From a virus, in the IMG/VR virus record IMGVR_UViG_3300026076_000002: a stretch of 64,000 nt of DNA, one strand, 5' to 3'. The position numbers and the translations under genes were made by a program. The notes under the pieces are model-generated. The model saw only the letters and a program-made list of their open reading frames with translations, was not told the origin of the DNA and did not search any database. Positions 26,882 through 61,087 of the stretch are shown here, one piece after another; the first letter of the stretch is position 1; the number at the start of each line of letters is the position of its first letter.

Positions 26882-27444
26882 GTGCATCTCAGCCATTAAA
26901 ATTAGTATCTGATGTTGGGTCGGTATCCTCTGCAAATGCTACATCTGCTGTATCATCTGCTCAGATAGTTCGATCTGGTGTCGTACATGTAACTGCTAGT
27001 TCTGATAAGGCTGGTGGTTCTATTGCAGCATGTAATACTTCCACCCAAACTGGTGTAGGTAGCATGTTTGTAGATAAGGGTAGTAACATCCTTTATCGTT
27101 ATGCTCATCCAGCTAACGCTAATGTTACTAATATCACTGCTACTAATCCAGCAGTTATAACTCTTGACCATCCAGACACAAAACTAAGTGTAGGTGATTA
27201 TGTCACCTTAGTTGGTTCTACTGTTAGTGGATACAATACTCAAATAGCACACGTAGAGGTTACTGCTAAGTCACAACCTCAACAGTTCAACGAGTATATA
27301 CAGACTATAACTGTGAGTGCAGACTGTTCATCACTAGCAGCGTTTAGTGGTACAGCAACTGCATACAAATCTGTTATCTTTAGACTTGCTCCTGAGACAT
27401 CATCAGGATGTACACTTCATATCAAAGAGGTAGGAATAGGATGA
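26878..27444 (+). CDS. Hypothetical structural protein (Ser/Thr/Val-rich)
   Basis: ORF track; inside the head module, overlapping both neighbours by 4 nt. Confidence 0.6.
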   Translation: MSASQPLKLVSDVGSVSSANATSAVSSAQIVRSGVVHVTASSDKAGGSIAACNTSTQTGVGSMFVDKGSNILYRYAHPANANVTNITATNPAVITLDHPDTKLSVGDYVTLVGSTVSGYNTQIAHVEVTAKSQPQQFNEYIQTITVSADCSSLAAFSGTATAYKSVIFRLAPETSSGCTLHIKEVGIG

Positions 27445-28088
27445 AATTAATTGCAGAAGAAATTGAATCCGTAGATATTCTTACCGAAGAAAAAGATGGT
27501 AAGAAGACTTTATACATTCAAGGACCATTTTTACAAGCAGAAGTTGTGAATAGGAACAAACGTTTCTATCCAATTGATACAATGGTTAATGAGGTCAGTA
27601 ATTATAATAAGAAGTTCGTTTCATCAGGTAGAGCACTTGGAGAACTCGGACATCCTGATGGACCTTCTATAAATCTTGATCGAGTTTCACATAAAATTGT
27701 GTCACTTAAGCAAGAAGGAAACAACTTTATTGGTAAAGCACAGATACTATCAACCCCTATGGGTAAGATAGCAGAATCACTTTTAAGTGATGGTGTAAAA
27801 CTTGGAGTTTCCAGTCGTGGTATGGGTTCTATGTACCAAAAGGATGGGGTAAACATAGTAGGAGAAGACTTCATGTTAGCAACTGCTGCTGACATTGTTG
27901 CGGATCCTAGTGCTCCCGATGCTTTTGTAGATGGAGTTATGGAAGGTAAGGAATGGGTCTGGGAAGGATCTATCTTGCGTGAGAAAAAATGTGAAGAGGT
28001 CAAGAAGTCAATAAATACGTTAGTGAGTCAAGAAGTATTAGATGAGCATAAACTTGCGTTATTCTCAAACTTCTTGCGTAGTCTATAG
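27441..28088 (+). CDS. g21: Prohead protease gp21
   Basis: MKLIAEE start, ALGELGHP, GVSSRGMGS, DIVADPSAPDA. Confidence 0.96.
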   Translation: MKLIAEEIESVDILTEEKDGKKTLYIQGPFLQAEVVNRNKRFYPIDTMVNEVSNYNKKFVSSGRALGELGHPDGPSINLDRVSHKIVSLKQEGNNFIGKAQILSTPMGKIAESLLSDGVKLGVSSRGMGSMYQKDGVNIVGEDFMLATAADIVADPSAPDAFVDGVMEGKEWVWEGSILREKKCEEVKKSINTLVSQEVLDEHKLALFSNFLRSL

Positions 28089-28141: not shown

Positions 28142-29245
28142 ATGTCAGACGAACAATTACATGAGATGGATAATCAGGTAACGAAGGGAGCTTCTGCTGC
28201 CGAGCCTATGCCTAAGGCTCCAAATTACGTTCCTGATGCGGGTTCAGTCGAGGTTCTTGGTGGACCAACTCCAACCAATTCTAAACCTACAGACGATAGC
28301 AACAAGCTAAAAACTCCATCGGCCACTTTGGCACAAACAGGCGATCCTCATTTTCGCCACGCTGGTGCTAAGACCACTCTACCAGGCCCTGCTGCTTTAA
28401 AAGCAACTGGATATGGTAAGGGTGCTAACGAAGAAACAGCTAAGGAGGAAGAAGTTGTTGCAGAAACTCCAGCAGTAGAAACAGAAACTACCGTTTCTGA
28501 AACTGAAACTGTTGAAGCTCCTGTAGTAACAGAAGAACCATTGGACATTGATGCAGATGTTAAGGCACTTCTCGAAGGAGAAGAACTATCTGAGAAATTC
28601 CAAGAGAAGGCTAAGACAATCTTTGAAGCAGTCATCAAGTCTAGGCTTGCTGATGCTAAAGAAGCAATGTCTAAGCAGTACGATACAATGCTTGCTGAAG
28701 AAGTAGGTAAAGTACGTACAGAACTTACAGAGCATATTGACTCATACCTTGAGTACGTTGCTAACGAGTGGATTAATGAAAATGCACTTGCTGTAGAATC
28801 AGGAATCAGAGGTGAACTATCTGAATCCTTTATGACTGGTCTTAAGGGTCTCTTTGAAGAGCACTACGTAACTATCCCAGATGATAAGTACGATGTCCTT
28901 GAGGCAATGGTCACAAAACTAGATGAAATGGAGAGTAAACTCAACGAACAGATTGATGGTAATATCGCTTTAACTAAGCGTCTATCTGATTCTGTCTCCG
29001 ACAACATCCTTGATGAGGTTAGCGAAGGACTAGCACTTTCTCAAAAAGAAAAGCTTAGTTCATTAGCCGAAGGTGTTGAGTTTGAAAGCGAGGAACAATA
29101 CCGTGAGAAACTTGTAACTCTTAAAGAGTCATATTTCTCTAATAAGCCAGTTACTGACTCACAAGAAGTCATATCCGAAGATGCTGTAGAGGAGAATTCT
29201 TCTACTATGTCAAAGTATCTCGAAGCGTTGACTAAGTTCAACTAG
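28142..29245 (+). CDS. g22: Prohead scaffold gp22
   Basis: LSEKFQEKAKTIFEA, DSYLEYVANEW, LKESYF; synteny. Confidence 0.93.
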   Translation: MSDEQLHEMDNQVTKGASAAEPMPKAPNYVPDAGSVEVLGGPTPTNSKPTDDSNKLKTPSATLAQTGDPHFRHAGAKTTLPGPAALKATGYGKGANEETAKEEEVVAETPAVETETTVSETETVEAPVVTEEPLDIDADVKALLEGEELSEKFQEKAKTIFEAVIKSRLADAKEAMSKQYDTMLAEEVGKVRTELTEHIDSYLEYVANEWINENALAVESGIRGELSESFMTGLKGLFEEHYVTIPDDKYDVLEAMVTKLDEMESKLNEQIDGNIALTKRLSDSVSDNILDEVSEGLALSQKEKLSSLAEGVEFESEEQYREKLVTLKESYFSNKPVTDSQEVISEDAVEENSSTMSKYLEALTKFN

Positions 29246-29286: not shown

Positions 29287-30714
29287 ATGTTTAACTCTGC
29301 TCAATTGCAGAAGAAGTGGGGACCTCTTTTAGAAGCGGAAGGTCTTGATAGTATCAAGGACAACCACAGAAAAGCGGTTACAGCCCAACTTCTCGAAAAC
29401 CAAGAAAGATTTTTACGTGAAGAACGTGCCTTCTTGACAGAAGCACCTCCTACAGTTAACACTGACCCTGCTGGCACTGGTGCTGCTGGTTTCAGTGGTG
29501 GTGCTACTGATGCTGGCCCAGTTGCTGGTTTCGACCCCGTACTGATTTCTTTGATCAGACGTTCGATGCCTAACTTGGTCGCATATGACCTAGCTGGCGT
29601 TCAGCCAATGAACGGACCTACTGGTTTGATCTTTGCGATGAGAACTCGCTACGACAATCAGCAAGGAACAGAAGCATTCTTCAACGAACCAGATACTGCC
29701 TTCTCAGCACAAAACTCTGCTGCATCACTTAACCAAGGTGATTACACAGGTGCTGTTGATGGTGGAACAGATGTTGGTTTCGGTACTACTGCACAGGGTA
29801 CAGACCCAAGCAGTGATGCTACAAACCCATCAATCCTTAACGGTGGCGATCAAAACGCTTATCCTACAGGACAAGGTTTCAAGACCCAAGATTTAGAAGC
29901 ATTAGGTGACGATACAGCCACTAATGACTTCCGTGAGATGGCATTCAGTATCGAGAAAGTCTCGGTTACTGCTAAGTCTCGTGCTTTGAAAGCTGAGTAC
30001 AGTTTAGAACTTGCTCAAGACCTTAAGGCAATCCACGGTCTAGATGCTGAAGCTGAATTAGCAAATATCCTTTCAACAGAGATACTTGCTGAGATCAACA
30101 GAGAAATCATCAGAACTATCTACAAGGCTGCTGAGCCTGGTGCTCAGACGAACGTTGCTTCAACTGGAGTCTTCGACTTAGACGTTGACAGTAATGGTCG
30201 TTGGATGGTTGAGAAGTTCAAAGGTATGATGTTCCAGCTAGAGCGTGATTCAAACGCTATCGCTCAGAGAACAAGAAGAGGAAAGGGCAACGTTATCCTT
30301 TGCTCTGCTGACGTAGCATCTGCTCTTGCTGCTGCTGGTCAACTTGACTACACACCTGCTATCTCTGCTAACCTAACAGTTGATGATACTGGTAATACAT
30401 TTGCTGGAGTACTTAACGGACGCTTCAAGGTCTACATTGACCCATTTGCTGCTAACCTAAGTGCTAATCAGTACTACGTCATGGGTTATAAGGGATCTAA
30501 CCCTTATGATGCTGGACTGTTCTACTGCCCATACGTTCCTCTACAGATGGTTCGTGCAGTTGGTCAGGACACCTTCCAACCAAAAATTGGATTCAAGACC
30601 AGATATGGTATGGTTTCCAACCCTTATGCAGAAGGTACAACCCAAGGACTTGGACGTATTACTGCTAATAGCAACCGCTATTACAGACGTGTTAAGGTTC
30701 AGAACCTAATGTAA
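29287..30714 (+). CDS. g23: Major capsid protein gp23
   Basis: GVQPMNGPTGLIFAMR, ELAQDLKAIHGLDAE, FYCPYVPL, FQPKIGFKTRYG. Confidence 0.99.
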   Translation: MFNSAQLQKKWGPLLEAEGLDSIKDNHRKAVTAQLLENQERFLREERAFLTEAPPTVNTDPAGTGAAGFSGGATDAGPVAGFDPVLISLIRRSMPNLVAYDLAGVQPMNGPTGLIFAMRTRYDNQQGTEAFFNEPDTAFSAQNSAASLNQGDYTGAVDGGTDVGFGTTAQGTDPSSDATNPSILNGGDQNAYPTGQGFKTQDLEALGDDTATNDFREMAFSIEKVSVTAKSRALKAEYSLELAQDLKAIHGLDAEAELANILSTEILAEINREIIRTIYKAAEPGAQTNVASTGVFDLDVDSNGRWMVEKFKGMMFQLERDSNAIAQRTRRGKGNVILCSADVASALAAAGQLDYTPAISANLTVDDTGNTFAGVLNGRFKVYIDPFAANLSANQYYVMGYKGSNPYDAGLFYCPYVPLQMVRAVGQDTFQPKIGFKTRYGMVSNPYAEGTTQGLGRITANSNRYYRRVKVQNLM

Positions 30715-46901: not shown

Positions 46902-47339
46902 ATGTTTAACGAAGCTAACGCTATTACTTTGTCCGTTCCTGAGACAAAGGCTTACCTAGACAAGGTAAGAAGAAATATGATTGGGTTTGATGACTGGTTC
47001 ACAAACTTTGATCAGCATTTTTCACAGCAAAATAACTATCCACCATACAACACAGTAAAACTCAGCAACCATGAGTACCGTGTTGAGGTTGCACTTGCTG
47101 GATTTAAAAAAGATGATTTAAAAGTTTACACACAGGAAGGTAAACTAATCCTTGAAGGAAGTAAGGAAGGTGATGGACGTGATTATGTTCACCAAGGACT
47201 AGCACAAAGATCATTTACTAGAACATGGGCATTGCCTGATGATTTGGTAGTTAAGAAAGTAGATTTCCAAGACGGACTACTTCTTATTGACATAGACAGA
47301 GTTATCCCTGACCATCAGCAACGAAAAGACTGGCTCTAA
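46902..47339 (+). CDS. hsp20: Small heat-shock protein
   Basis: NYPPYN, VEVALAGF, HQGLAQRSFTRTW, DGLL. Confidence 0.95.
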   Translation: MFNEANAITLSVPETKAYLDKVRRNMIGFDDWFTNFDQHFSQQNNYPPYNTVKLSNHEYRVEVALAGFKKDDLKVYTQEGKLILEGSKEGDGRDYVHQGLAQRSFTRTWALPDDLVVKKVDFQDGLLLIDIDRVIPDHQQRKDWL

Positions 47340-47361
47340 ATAAAGAAAAGATGAGCTAGAC

Positions 47362-48102
47362 GTGTACAGCAGGGTACTCAAACATATTAGTGGGGCAGAT
47401 CTTCGTGCTTTAAACGAGGATCTGTCTTTGAAGTTTAGGGATGAATTAAACCCTATGTTCTGGAAGGGTGATACTCTCAAGGGTGTCATTAAGACTGCTT
47501 TGATGAAGTTTGCTAATGCATTTGCAGAATATGTAGAACTTGATAACAGAGCAATTAAAGATGTTTTAATGTTGGGTGGTAATGCAGGGTATAATTATAC
47601 TCAGCACTCAGACATCGATGTACATATCGTAGTAGATCCTAAGTATATTCCTGGATGTGATCCAGAAGTATTAGATGATTACTACATGGATAAGAAGACA
47701 TTATGGGAACTAACCCATGATGTTAAGATCTATGGTGTACCAGCAGAACCATATATTGAACAACCAGGTATCAAACGTAAGAAAGCACAGGGTGTGTATA
47801 GTTTGATGAAGAATAAATGGATTCAGAAACCACAGAAATTTGAAGGGGAACTAGACGAAAGAGAACTTGAGAAGAAGGTTAATAATATCAAACGTAAATT
47901 AGATTGTATGATACAGTCAGATGGTGTAGGACTTAAGGCAGCAGTCAAACGGTTACGTGATGCTAGGCAAGCATCTCTTGAAAAGTATGGTGAGTATGGT
48001 ATGGAGAACTTGGTGTTCAAAGAACTACGTAACTCAGGTTACATTGACAAAGTAAGGAAGGCGGTGTTACAATATACATCAGCAAGCCTATCGCTTAAAT
48101 GA
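47362..48102 (+). CDS. Pol-beta-superfamily nucleotidyltransferase-like protein
   Basis: LGGNAGYNY...SDIDVH motif; GVYSL...W; ENLVFKELR; CTAAATA at 47336. Confidence 0.65.
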   Translation: MYSRVLKHISGADLRALNEDLSLKFRDELNPMFWKGDTLKGVIKTALMKFANAFAEYVELDNRAIKDVLMLGGNAGYNYTQHSDIDVHIVVDPKYIPGCDPEVLDDYYMDKKTLWELTHDVKIYGVPAEPYIEQPGIKRKKAQGVYSLMKNKWIQKPQKFEGELDERELEKKVNNIKRKLDCMIQSDGVGLKAAVKRLRDARQASLEKYGEYGMENLVFKELRNSGYIDKVRKAVLQYTSASLSLK

Positions 48103-56299: not shown

Positions 56300-56484
56300 G
56301 AAAATTATTACTGCTACCAATTACTTTACTATTAGTGGGATGCGATCCTTCAGGTGGTATGGGTAGTTTTAATTGGTCACCACCAGGTGAACCAGATGGG
56401 CAAACATGTGAATCAACAGCAGGTTTCTGGCAACAGTATTGCGGTACTGGAGAACATCCTAACATATGTGATTGTTACCAATGA
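56296..56484 (+). CDS. Small Cys-rich lipoprotein
   Basis: MRK, a hydrophobic run and lipobox LVGC; four further Cys. Confidence 0.65.
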   Translation: MRKLLLLPITLLLVGCDPSGGMGSFNWSPPGEPDGQTCESTAGFWQQYCGTGEHPNICDCYQ

Positions 56485-56783
56485 ATAAATTATTAGAGCA
56501 TCTGATCATCGCATACTCCTTTGATAGGAAGAAGGTTGAGCGTTTGCCTAATGAGATTGAGAACTTTTCCAGATTCTTTGTTGAATTTGGATCACCTATC
56601 TCAGAAGATAAGTATAAATATAATCAATATACTACGCTTGGACTAGCGTTTATTCGTCAACACCGCAACGAAATCTACAGAAGAATCCGTGAAGCAGTTC
56701 GATCAGTTCATAACAGAAGCAAGAATAACACGAGCTTCAACTCAGGCAAAACGCCTAGGTCTCGTAGGAGACGGGCATGGTGA
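56481..56783 (+). CDS. Hypothetical protein
   Basis: ATGA-coupled to the lipoprotein gene; 3' end overlaps the next gene. Confidence 0.5.
   Translation: MNKLLEHLIIAYSFDRKKVERLPNEIENFSRFFVEFGSPISEDKYKYNQYTTLGLAFIRQHRNEIYRRIREAVRSVHNRSKNNTSFNSGKTPRSRRRRAW
56613..56620 (+). promoter_or_regulatory. Late promoter TATAAATA
   Basis: Exact T4 late consensus about 70 nt before the 56689 gene. Confidence 0.6.
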
Positions 56784-57579
56784 TTGGTATGACCGTCAAG
56801 GTCAACTAAAAGCCAAGACTATTCGTGGCGAACTTAAAATGTTCGATGCGAGAAAAGCAGCTCAGGGTGAAGATGAACGTGAGAAAAATTCACAGACATT
56901 AGCGTCACGTAGTGGTGCTAGTGCTACTGCTACCGCTACTGCTAGTAGTGCAGGTCAGGTAAAACCAGATGTAGATAGGATGGGACGTGCCCTATCTAAC
57001 TTCCAAGCAAAACAACAATTTGATCAGGCAGCAAGAGACGAACCATTAACAGTTGCCTTTGATAAGTTTGATGATGACGTAGTAGGTGATAATATAATAG
57101 CAACAGCAGCACAGACATCAGAAGAATTCTATATCTTCCCTTCTAGGGATGCTGATATCAAACGTTTGAAGGAAGCACACCCAGATTTACAAGAAGCAAT
57201 AATAGATGATGCTAATGCTGAGACAATTTATGACGTACTACAATCAATATATGAGAATGGTTATAACTCTTTGAACATAGTAGTAAGACAGTCTAGAGCA
57301 CAGGAGATTGCTAAGTTAGCAATGGAGCAGAACGGTAAGTTATATAATTATGTCATGCTTAACGTAATACCAGTTGATGAAAGGACTTTGAGAGAACAGT
57401 ATGTGTCAGGTGACCTGTTCAAGGTAGGTACATTTGTTGAATCTAGTGATAGTGTTGGTAAAATTATAAGACGTGGTGCTAACCATTTGATATGTGTTGA
57501 TGAGAATGCACGTATGTTTAGGACATGGATAACTGAGTGTAGGGAAGTGGGTAAGTTTAATCTTGGAGTAGATTTCTAA
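56689..57579 (+). CDS. Cytidylyltransferase-like protein with a degenerate active site and a capsid-targeting-like N-terminus
   Basis: MKQFDQFITEA; LGLVGDGHGDWYD; LTVAF...; YNY; REQYVSGDLFKVG...GKIIRRGANHLIC. Confidence 0.6.
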   Translation: MKQFDQFITEARITRASTQAKRLGLVGDGHGDWYDRQGQLKAKTIRGELKMFDARKAAQGEDEREKNSQTLASRSGASATATATASSAGQVKPDVDRMGRALSNFQAKQQFDQAARDEPLTVAFDKFDDDVVGDNIIATAAQTSEEFYIFPSRDADIKRLKEAHPDLQEAIIDDANAETIYDVLQSIYENGYNSLNIVVRQSRAQEIAKLAMEQNGKLYNYVMLNVIPVDERTLREQYVSGDLFKVGTFVESSDSVGKIIRRGANHLICVDENARMFRTWITECREVGKFNLGVDF

Positions 57580-57586
57580 ATAAATA
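57576..57586 (+). promoter_or_regulatory. Putative late promoter (CTAAATAAATA)
   Basis: About 25 nt upstream of the 57611 ATG. Confidence 0.6.
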
Positions 57587-57610
57587 ATAGGACAAAGTAT
57601 CAATTGACCA

Positions 57611-58600
57611 ATGGGAATCTGGAATCAGACATTTGATGATCTACGTAAGCCTTACTTAGAAGGTAAAGATCAGGAAAAGAAATCTAAAGGCAAACGCTGG
57701 CAAGATGATGACGGTGATGGTAAGTGGTACGAAAAAAGTGATGTAGATGGTAAGATTAGTAAACGTGAGAAGGAAGAGAAAAAAAAGAATGAAGCGTATA
57801 CTGTTACTAACGCTGACAAAAAAGGTAACACTAAAGCATACCAAGGATTTGTTGCAGGTATGAAGAGTAAGGTGACAGGTAAGCCAATGTATAAGGCTGC
57901 TGATCATATGAAGACTGAGCATCATTCAAAGGACTGTGACGATACTTGTGAACCAAAGTGTGAGCATGACCAAGAAGTAAAGGAAGATGTTGAATCGATA
58001 GATGAAATAAGTAAGAAGACTTTGGGTAGTTATGTAAAGAAGGCAAGTAAAGAAACCAAAGGAAACTGGGTGGCAACACAGCATGGATCTGGTATACCTA
58101 AGAAAGCAAGAGATATAAAACAAAGGCAGATCAGTAAAAGACTGAAGGGTATGGAGAAGGCAGGTGAGAAGTTGGCGAAAGAAGATGTTGAATTGATAGA
58201 TGAAAGAGGACGTGATGACAGTACTACTCTAGGTGATAGAGCACTAAGTAAAGCAAAGCGTCTAGGTCAGAAGAGGAGAAATTCTAAAGAATATAAGTCA
58301 GGATTGAGACGTGGTACTGGTGCAAAGGAGTATGATAACTACAAACTAGCAAGAAAGCAGCATAGTAATGATGCATCAAGTGAGAATCAGATGAGTAGAT
58401 CTAAACCTCAACGTGGTGAAGGTAACAAAGCAAAGAGAAGAGCAGGTCAAAAGGTGAGAAACACTAGAAACGATAGAGTAGTTAGTACACGTGACGGATT
58501 TAAGGTAGTACGGGGTGAGCATCTTGATTGGAGATCTGATCTAGGTTACATTACAGAAAAATCTGATTGTGACAGTGGAGATAAGAAAGCAAAAAAGTAA
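57611..58600 (+). CDS. Basic modular protein (putative internal head protein), 329-aa zero-frame product
   Basis: Lys/Arg-rich modules separated by xxE motifs; ends GCA AAA AAG TAA. Confidence 0.7.
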   Translation: MGIWNQTFDDLRKPYLEGKDQEKKSKGKRWQDDDGDGKWYEKSDVDGKISKREKEEKKKNEAYTVTNADKKGNTKAYQGFVAGMKSKVTGKPMYKAADHMKTEHHSKDCDDTCEPKCEHDQEVKEDVESIDEISKKTLGSYVKKASKETKGNWVATQHGSGIPKKARDIKQRQISKRLKGMEKAGEKLAKEDVELIDERGRDDSTTLGDRALSKAKRLGQKRRNSKEYKSGLRRGTGAKEYDNYKLARKQHSNDASSENQMSRSKPQRGEGNKAKRRAGQKVRNTRNDRVVSTRDGFKVVRGEHLDWRSDLGYITEKSDCDSGDKKAKK

Positions 58601-58634
58601 AAAAGGGAAAGCACAAGTTTGTAACTGTTTTCCC
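58577..58634 (+). promoter_or_regulatory. Programmed -1 ribosomal frameshift signal
   Basis: GGAG (58577-80), 10 nt, in-frame A_AAA_AAG (58591-97), 7 nt, hairpin GGGAAAGCA/TGTTTTCCC (58605-58634); the -1 frame is open to 59649. Confidence 0.75.
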
Positions 58635-59649
58635 AGACGTTAAAACTGAAGAAACGCTACTGGATAAACGTGCCAAAGCAAATGAGAAAGCACGTAAGTG
58701 GTTAAAGAAGGATGCTAAAGACAGTGGTTACACTGACTTAGCATTAAAAGCATCTATGTCTAAGGGTGCTGGTGTATCTGAAGCAAAGGTGGAGAAGAAC
58801 CGTTCAGATTTCGGTAAAGCATCAGTAAGAAACAAGCGTAAGTATGGTACAGAAGGTGAACCACTTGTAGGTAAGGCAGCAATCTTCCGTCAGAAAGGTG
58901 ACAGAGGTGATTTGATTGATCAAAGAAGAGCAGAGCACAAAGCAAAACGTGGTGTTAAGACTAAGGGTGTATCTGAGGCAAAGGTAGATACAGGTAAGTC
59001 ACCTGAAGGAAAGGAAGCTGCTAGGAACAAACGTAAGTTTGGTACAAGTCACAATCAAGCAAAGACTGGTGCATTAAGAAGGTCTCTTCATAAGATAAGA
59101 CGTGGAGACAAGAAGATAAAAGGTGAAAAACCTTACTATGGTGACGGTGGGTATGCAGCAGAAGGAAAGGAAAAGGGTTTAGACGGTAAAGCATGTTGGA
59201 AAGGGTACAGTCAACGTGGTACTAAGCAGAAAGGTGGTAAGACTGTAGACAACTGTGTAAAAAATGAAGGTGCAATACTTGACATAGTAAAGAAGGGATT
59301 AGGTAAGCACAAGGATGCTATCCAGAAGAGGAGGGTTGCTGCTAGAAAGGCAACTCCTTATGCTGCTATGGCTCAATCATATGAACCACAAGGTAATATG
59401 ATTCCTGAAGAAGGTTATGATAGGATGAGAGATGACAGACTTGTGAAGTATGGTATAGGACATGATGGTTCTGACCGTAGGAGTACCCCAAAAAGACGTA
59501 CACCTGACAACCAAAAGGTTAAAGGTAAGACAGTATTACAGAAACAAGCAGAGAAGAAGTATGGTAAGGGTGCTAGTGCTCTTGACATAGTAAAAGCAAA
59601 GATCAAAGCTAAGCATGGTGATGGTGCTATAATGGATAAGAAGAAATGA
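58597..59649 (+). CDS. -1-frame continuation of the 57611 gene (contains ORF-track 58756-59649); basic modular protein
   Basis: No stop from 58585 to 59646: VKKGKHKFVTVFPDVKTEETLLDKRAKANEKARKWLKKDAKDSGYTDLALKASMSKGAG...; no clear SD before ATG 58756. Confidence 0.7.
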   Translation, partial: VKKGKHKFVTVFPDVKTEETLLDKRAKANEKARKWLKKDAKDSGYTDLALKASMSKGAGVSEAKVEKNRSDFGKASVRNKRKYGTEGEPLVGKAAIFRQKGDRGDLIDQRRAEHKAKRGVKTKGVSEAKVDTGKSPEGKEAARNKRKFGTSHNQAKTGALRRSLHKIRRGDKKIKGEKPYYGDGGYAAEGKEKGLDGKACWKGYSQRGTKQKGGKTVDNCVKNEGAILDIVKKGLGKHKDAIQKRRVAARKATPYAAMAQSYEPQGNMIPEEGYDRMRDDRLVKYGIGHDGSDRRSTPKRRTPDNQKVKGKTVLQKQAEKKYGKGASALDIVKAKIKAKHGDGAIMDKKK

Positions 59650-59888
59650 CTTATCCAGCACCAGATAAGATACCTCATGACCCATGGTTCGAGCAACCAT
59701 GGCAGTATCAGGAGTACTATGTTGAATCTGCTCCTGTAGTTGTGGAAAAGACACCACATGAAACCATATATCAAATAGCTAAGGCTAGTGTTCCTATGGG
59801 TGGGTCTGAGCAGCATATTATTACAGATGAATATGCACCTTGTGATGTAGAATATGACACGATGAATGATCCCTTCGGAGGTTATTGA
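59646..59888 (+). CDS. Hypothetical acidic protein
   Basis: ATGA-coupled; PHDPWF and HETIY motifs. Confidence 0.6.
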   Translation: MTYPAPDKIPHDPWFEQPWQYQEYYVESAPVVVEKTPHETIYQIAKASVPMGGSEQHIITDEYAPCDVEYDTMNDPFGGY

Positions 59889-60256
59889 TGGAACTAAATG
59901 AAAGACTAGGTGGTAAGGGATACTCTAAGCAGGCTGCTGCTAGTTCAGTTTATCGTGGTAAGAAAAGTACTGGTGACTGGCCCGATTCTGATAGAGGACA
60001 GGGTAATAAGGCAGCGAGACGTGCTGGTAAGACTGTTAAAGCAAAGAGTCCTACCTATACAGCATATGTTAAGAATAAAAAGATTAAAGAAACATCAAAT
60101 TTAAAGAATGAGTTGATTGCTGGAGCACAGGCAAGGCATCAGCAAGCTAAAACTTTTAAACAGTTTCGTAGACAGGCAAATAAATCATCATTAAAGAAGG
60201 GTGAAGTACGTACTCTTGATAAGAGAACTGGTAAATGGAGAAGTAACAAAGGTTAA
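59888..60256 (+). CDS. Basic protein sharing a module with the 57611 protein
   Basis: LNE then RLGG; RGQGNKAARRAG (cf. RGEGNKAKRRAG); KTFKQF; LKKGEV. Confidence 0.65.
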   Translation: MELNERLGGKGYSKQAAASSVYRGKKSTGDWPDSDRGQGNKAARRAGKTVKAKSPTYTAYVKNKKIKETSNLKNELIAGAQARHQQAKTFKQFRRQANKSSLKKGEVRTLDKRTGKWRSNKG

Positions 60257-60520: not shown

Positions 60521-61087
60521 ATGGCACTCTGGGGAGTAACAGACGGATCTGAAGCTAAGCCTAAGAACCTTACTACAGACGAAAAGAAAGAAGTCTATGC
60601 TACTGAAAGTGGGTGGACTCGTGAAGCAGGCTCCGTATGGAGTGGTAATGGTAATACTAACGCTGATCCAGAATTACTGGTAGCAGTTAGTGGCCTTGCC
60701 GTTTCACTTGGTGCAGCAAACTTGACTGACATTGAGTTTATTAGTACAGCATTTGACAAGTCAGAAGGTGGAACACTACAGGTAAGAGCAAGATTTAATG
60801 AATCAGTTGATGTAACAGGTACACCACAACTTACAGTGGTTAACGATACAAATGCCAATCATACATTGTCATATGGATCAGGATCAGGTACAGCAGCATT
60901 AACATTCTTACTAATAATTGCTGGTGGTAGCAATGCAACTGATGATGGTGACGTACTATCAATTGGAACAAATGCTATATCACTGAATGGTGGAACTATT
61001 AAGGATAAGGGTACTAATACTGCCTCTACTATAACTAATGTTGCTTCAATAGGTACTGCTGCTGGAACAATAACTGTAACTGCATAA
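60521..61087 (+). CDS. Probable structural protein (Ig-like/beta-rich)
   Basis: MALWG start; ATAAATA at 60486; FNESVDVTGTPQL...LSYGSGSGT...LNGGTIKD. Confidence 0.65.
   Translation: MALWGVTDGSEAKPKNLTTDEKKEVYATESGWTREAGSVWSGNGNTNADPELLVAVSGLAVSLGAANLTDIEFISTAFDKSEGGTLQVRARFNESVDVTGTPQLTVVNDTNANHTLSYGSGSGTAALTFLLIIAGGSNATDDGDVLSIGTNAISLNGGTIKDKGTNTASTITNVASIGTAAGTITVTA

Follow-up and report, generated by a model that had tools for sequence, protein, structure and literature searches.

Cyanomyoviruses are among the most abundant viruses of the ocean, and how the 'non-structural' proteins that recur in their virion proteomes, such as enzymes resembling nicotinamide-mononucleotide adenylyltransferase (NMNAT), enter the capsid has been left open. 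This question is raised by a block of genes at positions 56689-60256 in a 64-kb stretch of viral DNA, the IMG/VR record IMGVR_UViG_3300026076_000002 (hereafter the window, meaning the whole stretch that was analysed). The window represents a T4-like cyanomyovirus encoding gp21, gp22 and gp23, and the closest public DNA consists of two 'Marine virus AG-345-D19' contigs of about 96% identity. From the letters alone, the initial annotation had described the block as a late-expressed cassette of capsid-packaged polyproteins that the prohead protease gp21 would dice after Glu residues. Comparison with relatives from cultured phages and metagenomes leads us to consider it fairly probable that the locus is the cyanomyovirus counterpart of the T4 internal-protein (IP) system in polyprotein form.

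In the scheme that we propose, the block would be transcribed late from TATAAATA/CTAAATA-type promoters. A presumably dead NMNAT-fold protein would bear a 10-residue T4-type leader and the first basic protein a different leader of 17-19 residues, both finishing in hydrophobic-x-Glu, and these leaders would dock the proteins on the gp22 core and thereby enclose them in the prohead. The leaders would then be removed by gp21, which would most likely also cut at (V/I/L/M)-x-E↓(A/G/D) linkers between modules and release basic peptides of 7 to about 120 residues that would remain with the DNA and probably be injected. A -1 frameshift at the heptamer A_AAA_AAG would give access to about half of the coding capacity (58597-59649), in a leader-bearing fusion only. 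Finally, the linkers would act as short direct repeats for the gain, loss and transfer of modules between genes, and the peptide set would thereby differ between near-identical phages.

Leaders, head machinery and virion proteins

The following features of the window bear on capsid targeting (arrows mark predicted cuts).

56689..57579, + strand: NMNAT/cytidylyltransferase-like protein with a GTG start; short, catalytically degenerate form according to alignments with relatives
56689-56718, + strand: putative T4-type capsid targeting sequence, residues 1-10 of this protein, ending ITE↓A, from the leader alignment
57611..58600, + strand: first Lys-rich modular protein, 329 residues; a leader, then modules split by hydrophobic-x-Glu linkers
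57611-57661, + strand: 17-residue leader of the first basic protein, ending YLE↓G and conserved in relatives
27441..28088, + strand: gp21 prohead protease (Peptidase_S77, E 3e-34), the predicted processing enzyme
28142-29245, + strand: gp22 scaffold (T4_CASP, E 4e-76), next to gp21
29287-30714, + strand: gp23, after gp22, with a predicted propeptide cleavage site FLTE↓A

The T4 internal proteins IPI, IPII and IPIII and their capsid targeting sequence are reportedly the subject of work by Mullaney and Black from 1996. As the initial annotation had noticed, the protein encoded at 56689 starts MKQFDQFITE↓A. It agrees with T4 IPII and IPIII, which start MKTYQEFIAEA (IPI starts MKTFKEF; all read from NC_000866), at positions 1, 2, 7, 8, 10 and 11, and has F for Y at position 4. 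Among the open reading frames (ORFs) of at least 50 codons in the 64 kb, this is the only one with an MK.[FY]..[FL] start. In 62 relatives the leader residues F7, E10 and A11 are invariant and M1 and K2 are at least 90% conserved. The T4 ten-residue leader is sufficient for capsid targeting and is removed by gp21 (PMC9026906). Moreover, the leader site ITE↓A has the context of ITE-6 in T4 Alt and resembles the predicted gp23 site FLTE↓A; T4 gp21 cuts after Glu, and Alt is cut at ITE-6 and LTE-619 (PMC5694885).

The leader of the first basic protein follows another consensus, MSNPWxxx(F/Y)xxLRxP(Y/F)LxE↓KK, and is ended by hydrophobic-x-E at residue 17-19 in about 41 of the 45 unique relatives of this gene. 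In P-SSM7, gene 194 starts with MKTYSQFIEE↓G, almost the T4 leader, which runs directly into three modules of the family described below.

The 56689 protein is homologous along its length to the cyanophage 'cytidyltransferase' or NMNAT (T4-GC 190; 387 phage records), the long forms of which begin MKKFSAFL(N/T)EA, MKSFLQFLKEA or MKNFSSFLTEA. The (H/T)xGH motif is lost in the window form, where DKFDDDVVGDNII aligns to GRFNPPTxGHEKLL of the long forms, and the ISxxxxR motif is lost in all short-form members through the deletion of a segment of about 77 columns containing SASKMR. Because both the HxGH motif and the ISxxxxR segment are gone, the window form is very unlikely to be an enzyme. A Pfam search with the 56689 protein gave no match, whereas the long forms match PF01467. 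Its AlphaFold2 model (mean predicted local distance difference test score 66) has an N-terminal helix at residues 3-22, disorder at 55-115, a Rossmann-like core and a C-terminal beta-barrel; a Foldseek search of the PDB with this model returned nothing at E ≤0.001, only weak NadD and KOW-like matches. The short form is 48-64% identical in most of the 62 metagenomic relatives and is without a cultured member, the best isolate match being 37% identical. It represents a large uncultured clade of more than 60 distinct IMG/VR contigs, with no isolate above 37% identity. The existence of a whole clade of degenerate short forms implies, as far as sequences can tell, selection for a non-enzymatic and probably packaged role. 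The start of the gene is overlapped by 95 nt in another frame by an ORF of about 100 codons (56472-56783), and an ORF of matching size and position was found in the relatives examined; the overlap may be coding, or it may reflect the strong conservation of the partner frame.

The block is syntenic with genes 191-194 of P-RSM4, 174-176 of Syn19, 191-194 of P-SSM7, p142-146 of S-PM2 and ORF89-92 of S-SCSM1. In all five phages it is followed on its 3' side by a small T4-GC 424 gene and then by a gene annotated as 'head protein' or 'S-layer domain protein'. The latter is well conserved and lies at 60521-61087 in the window; S-PM2 and Syn19 have the first of these annotations, P-RSM4 and P-SSM7 the second. 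Despite the distance from the gp20-gp23 cluster, all of this neighbourhood may be related to the head. The content of the block is hypervariable, since the spacing between the conserved flanking genes ranges from 1.7 to 4.0 kb in 54 metagenomic relatives.

Homologues of these proteins have been detected in virions. NMNAT-like proteins were seen in CsCl-purified virions of S-SCSM1, S-CBWM1 and S-SZBM1 (PMC9602691; PMC10665884). Published mass spectrometry identified ORF89, ORF91 and ORF92 of S-SCSM1 as virion proteins, and the AYTVTNADKKGNT module of ORF 57611 is shared with ORF89, which carries AYTVT.ADKKGNT. The S-CREM2 virion proteins found by mass spectrometry include gp154 (cytidylyltransferase), gp155, gp156 and gp160 (PMC10665884); gp155 and gp160 are made of modules present in our metagenomic set of basic proteins. 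None of these virion proteomics papers ties packaging to a targeting leader, and a full-text literature search for a capsid targeting sequence in cyanophages returned a T4 review only. A conserved T4-type leader, the presence of gp21 and gp22 and the virion-detected homologues all agree with the capsid targeting put forward in the initial annotation, and we consider packaging of these proteins likely. The T4-type leader would thus offer a direct and testable answer to how NMNAT-like proteins are packaged.

Glutamate-bounded modules of the basic proteins

The modular part of the block comprises the first basic protein and the following features.

58597..59649, + strand: ORF in the -1 frame relative to ORF 57611, about 350 residues with Lys-rich modules; candidate C-terminal half of a fusion of about 680 residues with ORF 57611
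59888..60256, + strand: third basic protein, 122 residues; its ATG overlaps the upstream TGA and it starts MELNE↓R
57980..58205, + strand: 66-codon module between 28-nt direct repeats (57980-58007 and 58178-58205), both encoding a KEDVExIDE linker

The Glu motifs listed in the initial annotation were found at their places in the basic proteins: YLE17, KNE61, KTE103, VKE125, IDE132, AKE191, IDE198 and ITE316 in the 57611 protein, and KTE, GVSE (twice), AAE, KNE and IPEE in the -1-frame protein. The recurrence of modules that it reported is equally real. The GVSEAKV junction is repeated at 58771 and 58966 (23 nt, 91%), the 28-nt repeat occurs at 57980 and 58178, and an RGxGNKAxRRAG motif is common to the 59888 protein and ORF 57611; the C-terminus of the 59888 protein is similar to P-RSM4 gene 194. 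In a set of 113 non-identical Lys-rich proteins (K+R ≥19%) from 78 loci, modules of 20-80 residues recur in differing orders and genes, and two of them correspond to Pfam DUF6321 and DUF3008. Pfam searches with four window proteins gave nothing but one sub-threshold chance match to a Mycoplasma adhesin family; the PHROG families matched by the window proteins were all either of unknown function or mislabelled 'cytidyltransferase', and an ESM Atlas search with the -1-frame protein found only unnamed viral clusters below a reliable score.

Alignment of 229 related pairs yielded 65 unique indels that were pure, at least 10 residues long and flanked by well-aligned sequence. Both boundaries lay directly after a Glu in 24 of the 65, when 1.0 was expected from random positions (maximum 7 in 1000 simulations), and within 2 residues of Glu in 35 (expected 2.5). 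Exact Asp boundaries were seen once (expected 0.5). Homology detected by BLAST stopped on Glu in 26% of cases vs a background of 6.9%. Thus, the module boundaries in homologues coincide with Glu far beyond chance, an outcome in favour of the initial annotation.

The residues around these boundaries were also informative. The 46 junction Glu sites have a hydrophobic residue at P3 in 52% of cases vs 26% for all Glu; Val occupies P3 in 15, and Ala or Gly stands at P1' in 19 (41%). For all Glu the enrichment of hydrophobic P3 is modest (27% vs 20%) and alone would not support cleavage. The P3 signal comes from the junction sites. A hydrophobic P3 together with Ala or Gly at P1' matches the signature of gp21 sites.

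In relatives that are 96-98% identical in the NMNAT-like gene (L063 and L064) the 66-codon module is missing, and in L001 modules have been inserted exactly between GVSE and AKV. Because the 28-nt repeats bracket a module and the L001 insertions fall after GVSE, the linkers are likely to be both cleavage sites and recombination joints. From these comparative signatures, dicing at the internal linkers appears somewhat probable, and the resulting peptides may neutralise the charge of DNA or be injected as effectors.

Several observations weigh against the polyprotein reading. Exact boundaries of the K...K type also exceeded expectation (13 of the 65 indels, 4.0 expected), largely because the linkers read KKE, and the phylogenetic independence of the counted indel events is incomplete. 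Glu makes up as much as 6.9% of the proteins, and many of these residues are surely uncut; the Glu-ended linkers could be kept for another reason, e.g., as flexible acidic spacers or as recombination joints. In addition, several downstream genes in relatives begin without a recognisable leader, and the published proteomes used tryptic searches, giving no neo-N-termini. Alternatively, the packaged proteins may lose their leaders alone and stay long, basic, largely disordered DNA-binding internal proteins, with boundary Glu residues reflecting acidic spacers and recombination between linker repeats. Detection of homologues in virions would be the same for intact and diced forms, recombination does use the linkers, as the 28-nt repeats show, and the K...K-bounded indels are above chance as well. 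However, the boundary preference is for Glu and does not extend to Asp, the junction Glu residues have a hydrophobic P3 and Ala or Gly at P1' as in the leaders and the gp23 site, and under microhomology alone the far commoner Lys codons should dominate; we consider removal of the leaders alone unlikely. The products might instead be late cytoplasmic nucleic-acid-binding proteins, engaged for example in genome condensation or RNA binding, with a convergent likeness to the T4 leader. This would fit an uncultured clade, as no isolate matches the 56689 protein at more than 37% identity, and the authors of the S-SCSM1 study themselves raised the possible carry-over of abundant proteins (PMC9602691). 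However, NMNAT-like proteins occur in virions of several independent cyanophages, the leader is conserved (positions 1 and 2 in at least 90%, positions 7, 10 and 11 without exception) amid an otherwise hypervariable locus, and the block is syntenic with genes annotated as head proteins. A location outside the virion is in our opinion highly improbable, and packaged polyproteins remain the preferred reading.

The frame change at the end of ORF 57611

The junction between ORF 57611 and the ORF in the -1 frame contains three candidate elements.

58577..58580, + strand: GGAG, Shine-Dalgarno-like, 10 nt upstream of the heptamer
58591..58597, + strand: A_AAA_AAG slippery heptamer, in phase with ORF 57611 and directly before its TAA; proposed -1 site
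58605..58634, + strand: 9-bp hairpin starting 7 nt after the heptamer (-12.4 kcal/mol, z -1.5); possible stimulator

The 3' end of ORF 57611 reads GCA AAA AAG TAA. The -1 frame is open from 58585 to 59649 and its earliest ATG, GTG or TTG lies at 58756; the PHROG matches of the -1-frame ORF start before the first ATG, at residues 12 and 22. The stop of the zero frame lies 7 codons further downstream in AG-345-D19 and in three relatives from IMG/VR, which retain the heptamer and the -1 reading. Of the substitutions downstream of the heptamer codon, all three (58618, 58651 and 58660) are synonymous in the -1 frame and in no other. We rejected a sequencing error as the source of the frame change because independent assemblies carry the same A6G run.

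The heptamer arrangement also occurs in two unrelated contexts, in which the upstream ORF ends APVKK (7 loci) or DSVKKT (2 loci) before the stop, and an A-run variant is present in L009. Across the three contexts the in-phase heptamer precedes the stop by 0-8 codons, and translation could first start 24-156 nt beyond the stop; the heptamer is found in none of the TGATG-type junctions with stop/start coupling. In L006, L078 and L110 the first start codon is preceded by recognisable modules. Moreover, in L080 and L078 the two ORFs are colinear end to end with a single 653-residue ORF of L013, the junction being the heptamer. In these Lys-rich genes in-phase A_AAA_AAG occurs only 76 times in 48,940 codons despite 1,756 Lys-Lys pairs; it is depleted inside genes (60 vs 114 expected) and over-represented among their last 10 codons (16 vs 8 expected). 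A similar GGAG(G) stands 10-16 nt upstream of the heptamer in other clades.

The frameshift invoked in the initial annotation is supported by the heptamer in three contexts, the substitutions synonymous in the -1 frame and the unsplit L013 homologue, and a programmed -1 frameshift joining ORF 57611 to the downstream ORF is, in our judgement, likely. Transcriptional slippage on the A-run may be an alternative in the variants with long runs. The frameshift might plausibly set the stoichiometry of the N- and C-terminal peptide sets, as had been suggested. More simply, the downstream ORF, which has neither a start codon nor a leader of its own, could enter the capsid in fused form only. No report of such a frameshift in cyanophages was found in the literature.

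Alternatively, the gene may simply have been split by mutation, its downstream part being untranslated or translated from the ATG at 58756. A-rich Lys codons easily generate such heptamers, the stimulatory hairpin is weak, and ordinary stop/start coupling is used in other relatives. The hairpin, limited to the window clade and only marginally better than shuffled sequences, speaks against a programmed event in particular. However, the in-phase heptamer is perfectly associated with the lack of a nearby start codon in three unrelated contexts, modules precede the first start codon in L006, L078 and L110, coding constraint acts in the -1 frame, and the stop has moved in relatives in which the heptamer stayed. 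We therefore hold a mere split to be rather unlikely and retain programmed frameshifting as the explanation.

The proposed site has the same heptamer and phase as the -1 site of dnaX, with GGAG 10 nt upstream and a weak hairpin 7 nt downstream as candidate stimulators. The dnaX shift truncates its product, whereas here the shift would lengthen it by about 350 residues, in the manner of the phage G/GT tail chaperone or T7 10A/10B. If true, programmed frameshifting would extend beyond the known capsid and tail-chaperone cases, and for annotation two 'hypothetical' ORFs and a 155-nt 'gap' would become one product of about 680 residues.

Known systems, promoter-like motifs and neighbouring genes

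The locus shares with T4 IPI, IPII and IPIII a near-identical 10-residue leader ending in hydrophobic-x-Glu followed by Ala, small basic (here predicted) products, gp21 and gp22, and hypervariability between related phages. It differs in that T4 has one leader per small single-domain protein, whereas here one leader is carried by a probably dead enzyme and another by a chain of modules joined by Glu linkers, about a dozen modules at most, with half of the chain added by the proposed frameshift. The start of the 59888 protein, MELNE↓R, is like the 6-residue propeptide of T4 Alt, MELITE↓L. In T4 gp22, gp67 and gp68, too, one precursor receives many gp21 cuts after Glu inside the prohead (PMC5694885), the cuts in the window being predicted; those proteins are acidic scaffold or core components and their fragments mostly leave the head, whereas the modules described here are basic. 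Since the modules are basic, conserved as units and shuffled, we suggest that the fragments are the functional products. The inner-body and ejection proteins of phiKZ, 201phi2-1 and SPN3US are likewise packaged, non-structural and matured at (S/A/G)-x-E by a gp21-like protease, some at several sites. They differ in having propeptides of more than 100 residues on large folded proteins, with neither strings of mini-modules nor a T4-type leader. The virion NMNAT of cyanomyoviruses (T4-GC 190; S-SCSM1 ORF91, S-CREM2 gp154) resembles the 56689 protein in full-length homology, leader, C-terminal beta-barrel and genomic position; the window form differs by the loss of the HxGH motif and the ISxxxxR segment, and the 'cytidyltransferase' label is misleading for it.

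The strain-level turnover of modules resembles that of the polymorphic IP loci of T-even phages, where IPI* blocks a host restriction enzyme. More tentatively, and with a good deal of doubt, we envisage that cyanomyoviruses could package a strain-specific cocktail of small basic peptides, diced from polyproteins by the prohead protease, and inject them as fast-evolving counter-defence or host-takeover effectors, with the Glu linkers shuffling cassettes between genes and phages and the frameshift coupling leaderless cassettes to a leader-bearing carrier. If the polyprotein reading is true, shuffling modules delimited by Glu linkers would be a new way to encode and quickly diversify many packaged small proteins. 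No paper describing the leader, the Glu-module or the frameshift system was found in the open-access literature. Homologous genes are present in cultured phages with existing mass-spectrometry data (S-SCSM1, S-CREM2 and P-SSM7).

Two promoter-like motifs precede the basic genes and the NMNAT-like gene.

56613..56620, + strand: TATAAATA, an exact match to a late promoter-like motif of the T4 type, 76 nt before the GTG start
57576..57582, + strand: CTAAATA(AATA) late-type motif, CTAAATAAATA, 35 nt upstream of the ATG at 57611

Both motifs, on which the initial annotation had based late expression, were located at 56613 and 57576, and they fared differently. TATAAATA is not enriched in the window (4 found vs 6.6 expected), and conservation of the copy at -76 is confined to the 4 nearest relatives; its frequency and poor conservation both speak against late transcription from this motif. 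CTAAATA occurs 10 times in the window, fewer than the 16.8 predicted from shuffles; every copy is on the + (coding) strand and most of them immediately precede an ORF. The motif thus behaves like a real signal, a strand-specific promoter motif avoided elsewhere. In addition, most relatives have an [N]TAAATA-type motif 25-35 nt upstream of their first basic gene. CTAAATA is therefore better supported than TATAAATA as the late-type motif. Cyanophage late promoters are NATAAATA/CTAAATA-like. A literature search for a CTAAATA late promoter returned unrelated papers only, and it is promoter-like motifs alone that point to late expression of the block.

In several relatives (L066, L073, L074, L084-L086 and L144) insertions of unrelated genes, among them genes for a Cys-rich protein and for an ATPase-like protein of the PP-loop (SGGxDS) type, separate the NMNAT-like gene from the basic genes, which makes this site a general hotspot of insertion. 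One gene within the block of the window is not Lys-rich.

59646..59888, + strand: small acidic protein of 80 residues (K+R 4%), with a match to phrog_17144, a family of unknown function

This gene is linked to the next basic gene by TGATG translational coupling. Elsewhere in the window, CTAAATA precedes an ORF of 246 codons at 47336-48102 that encodes a nucleotidyltransferase-like protein with a GG..DxD-type motif. Its homologue in S-CREM2 is gp156, which is encoded there in the counterpart of the block and was detected in virions by mass spectrometry. The window protein has an LNE motif at about residue 19 of its N-terminus and is possibly another packaged enzyme.

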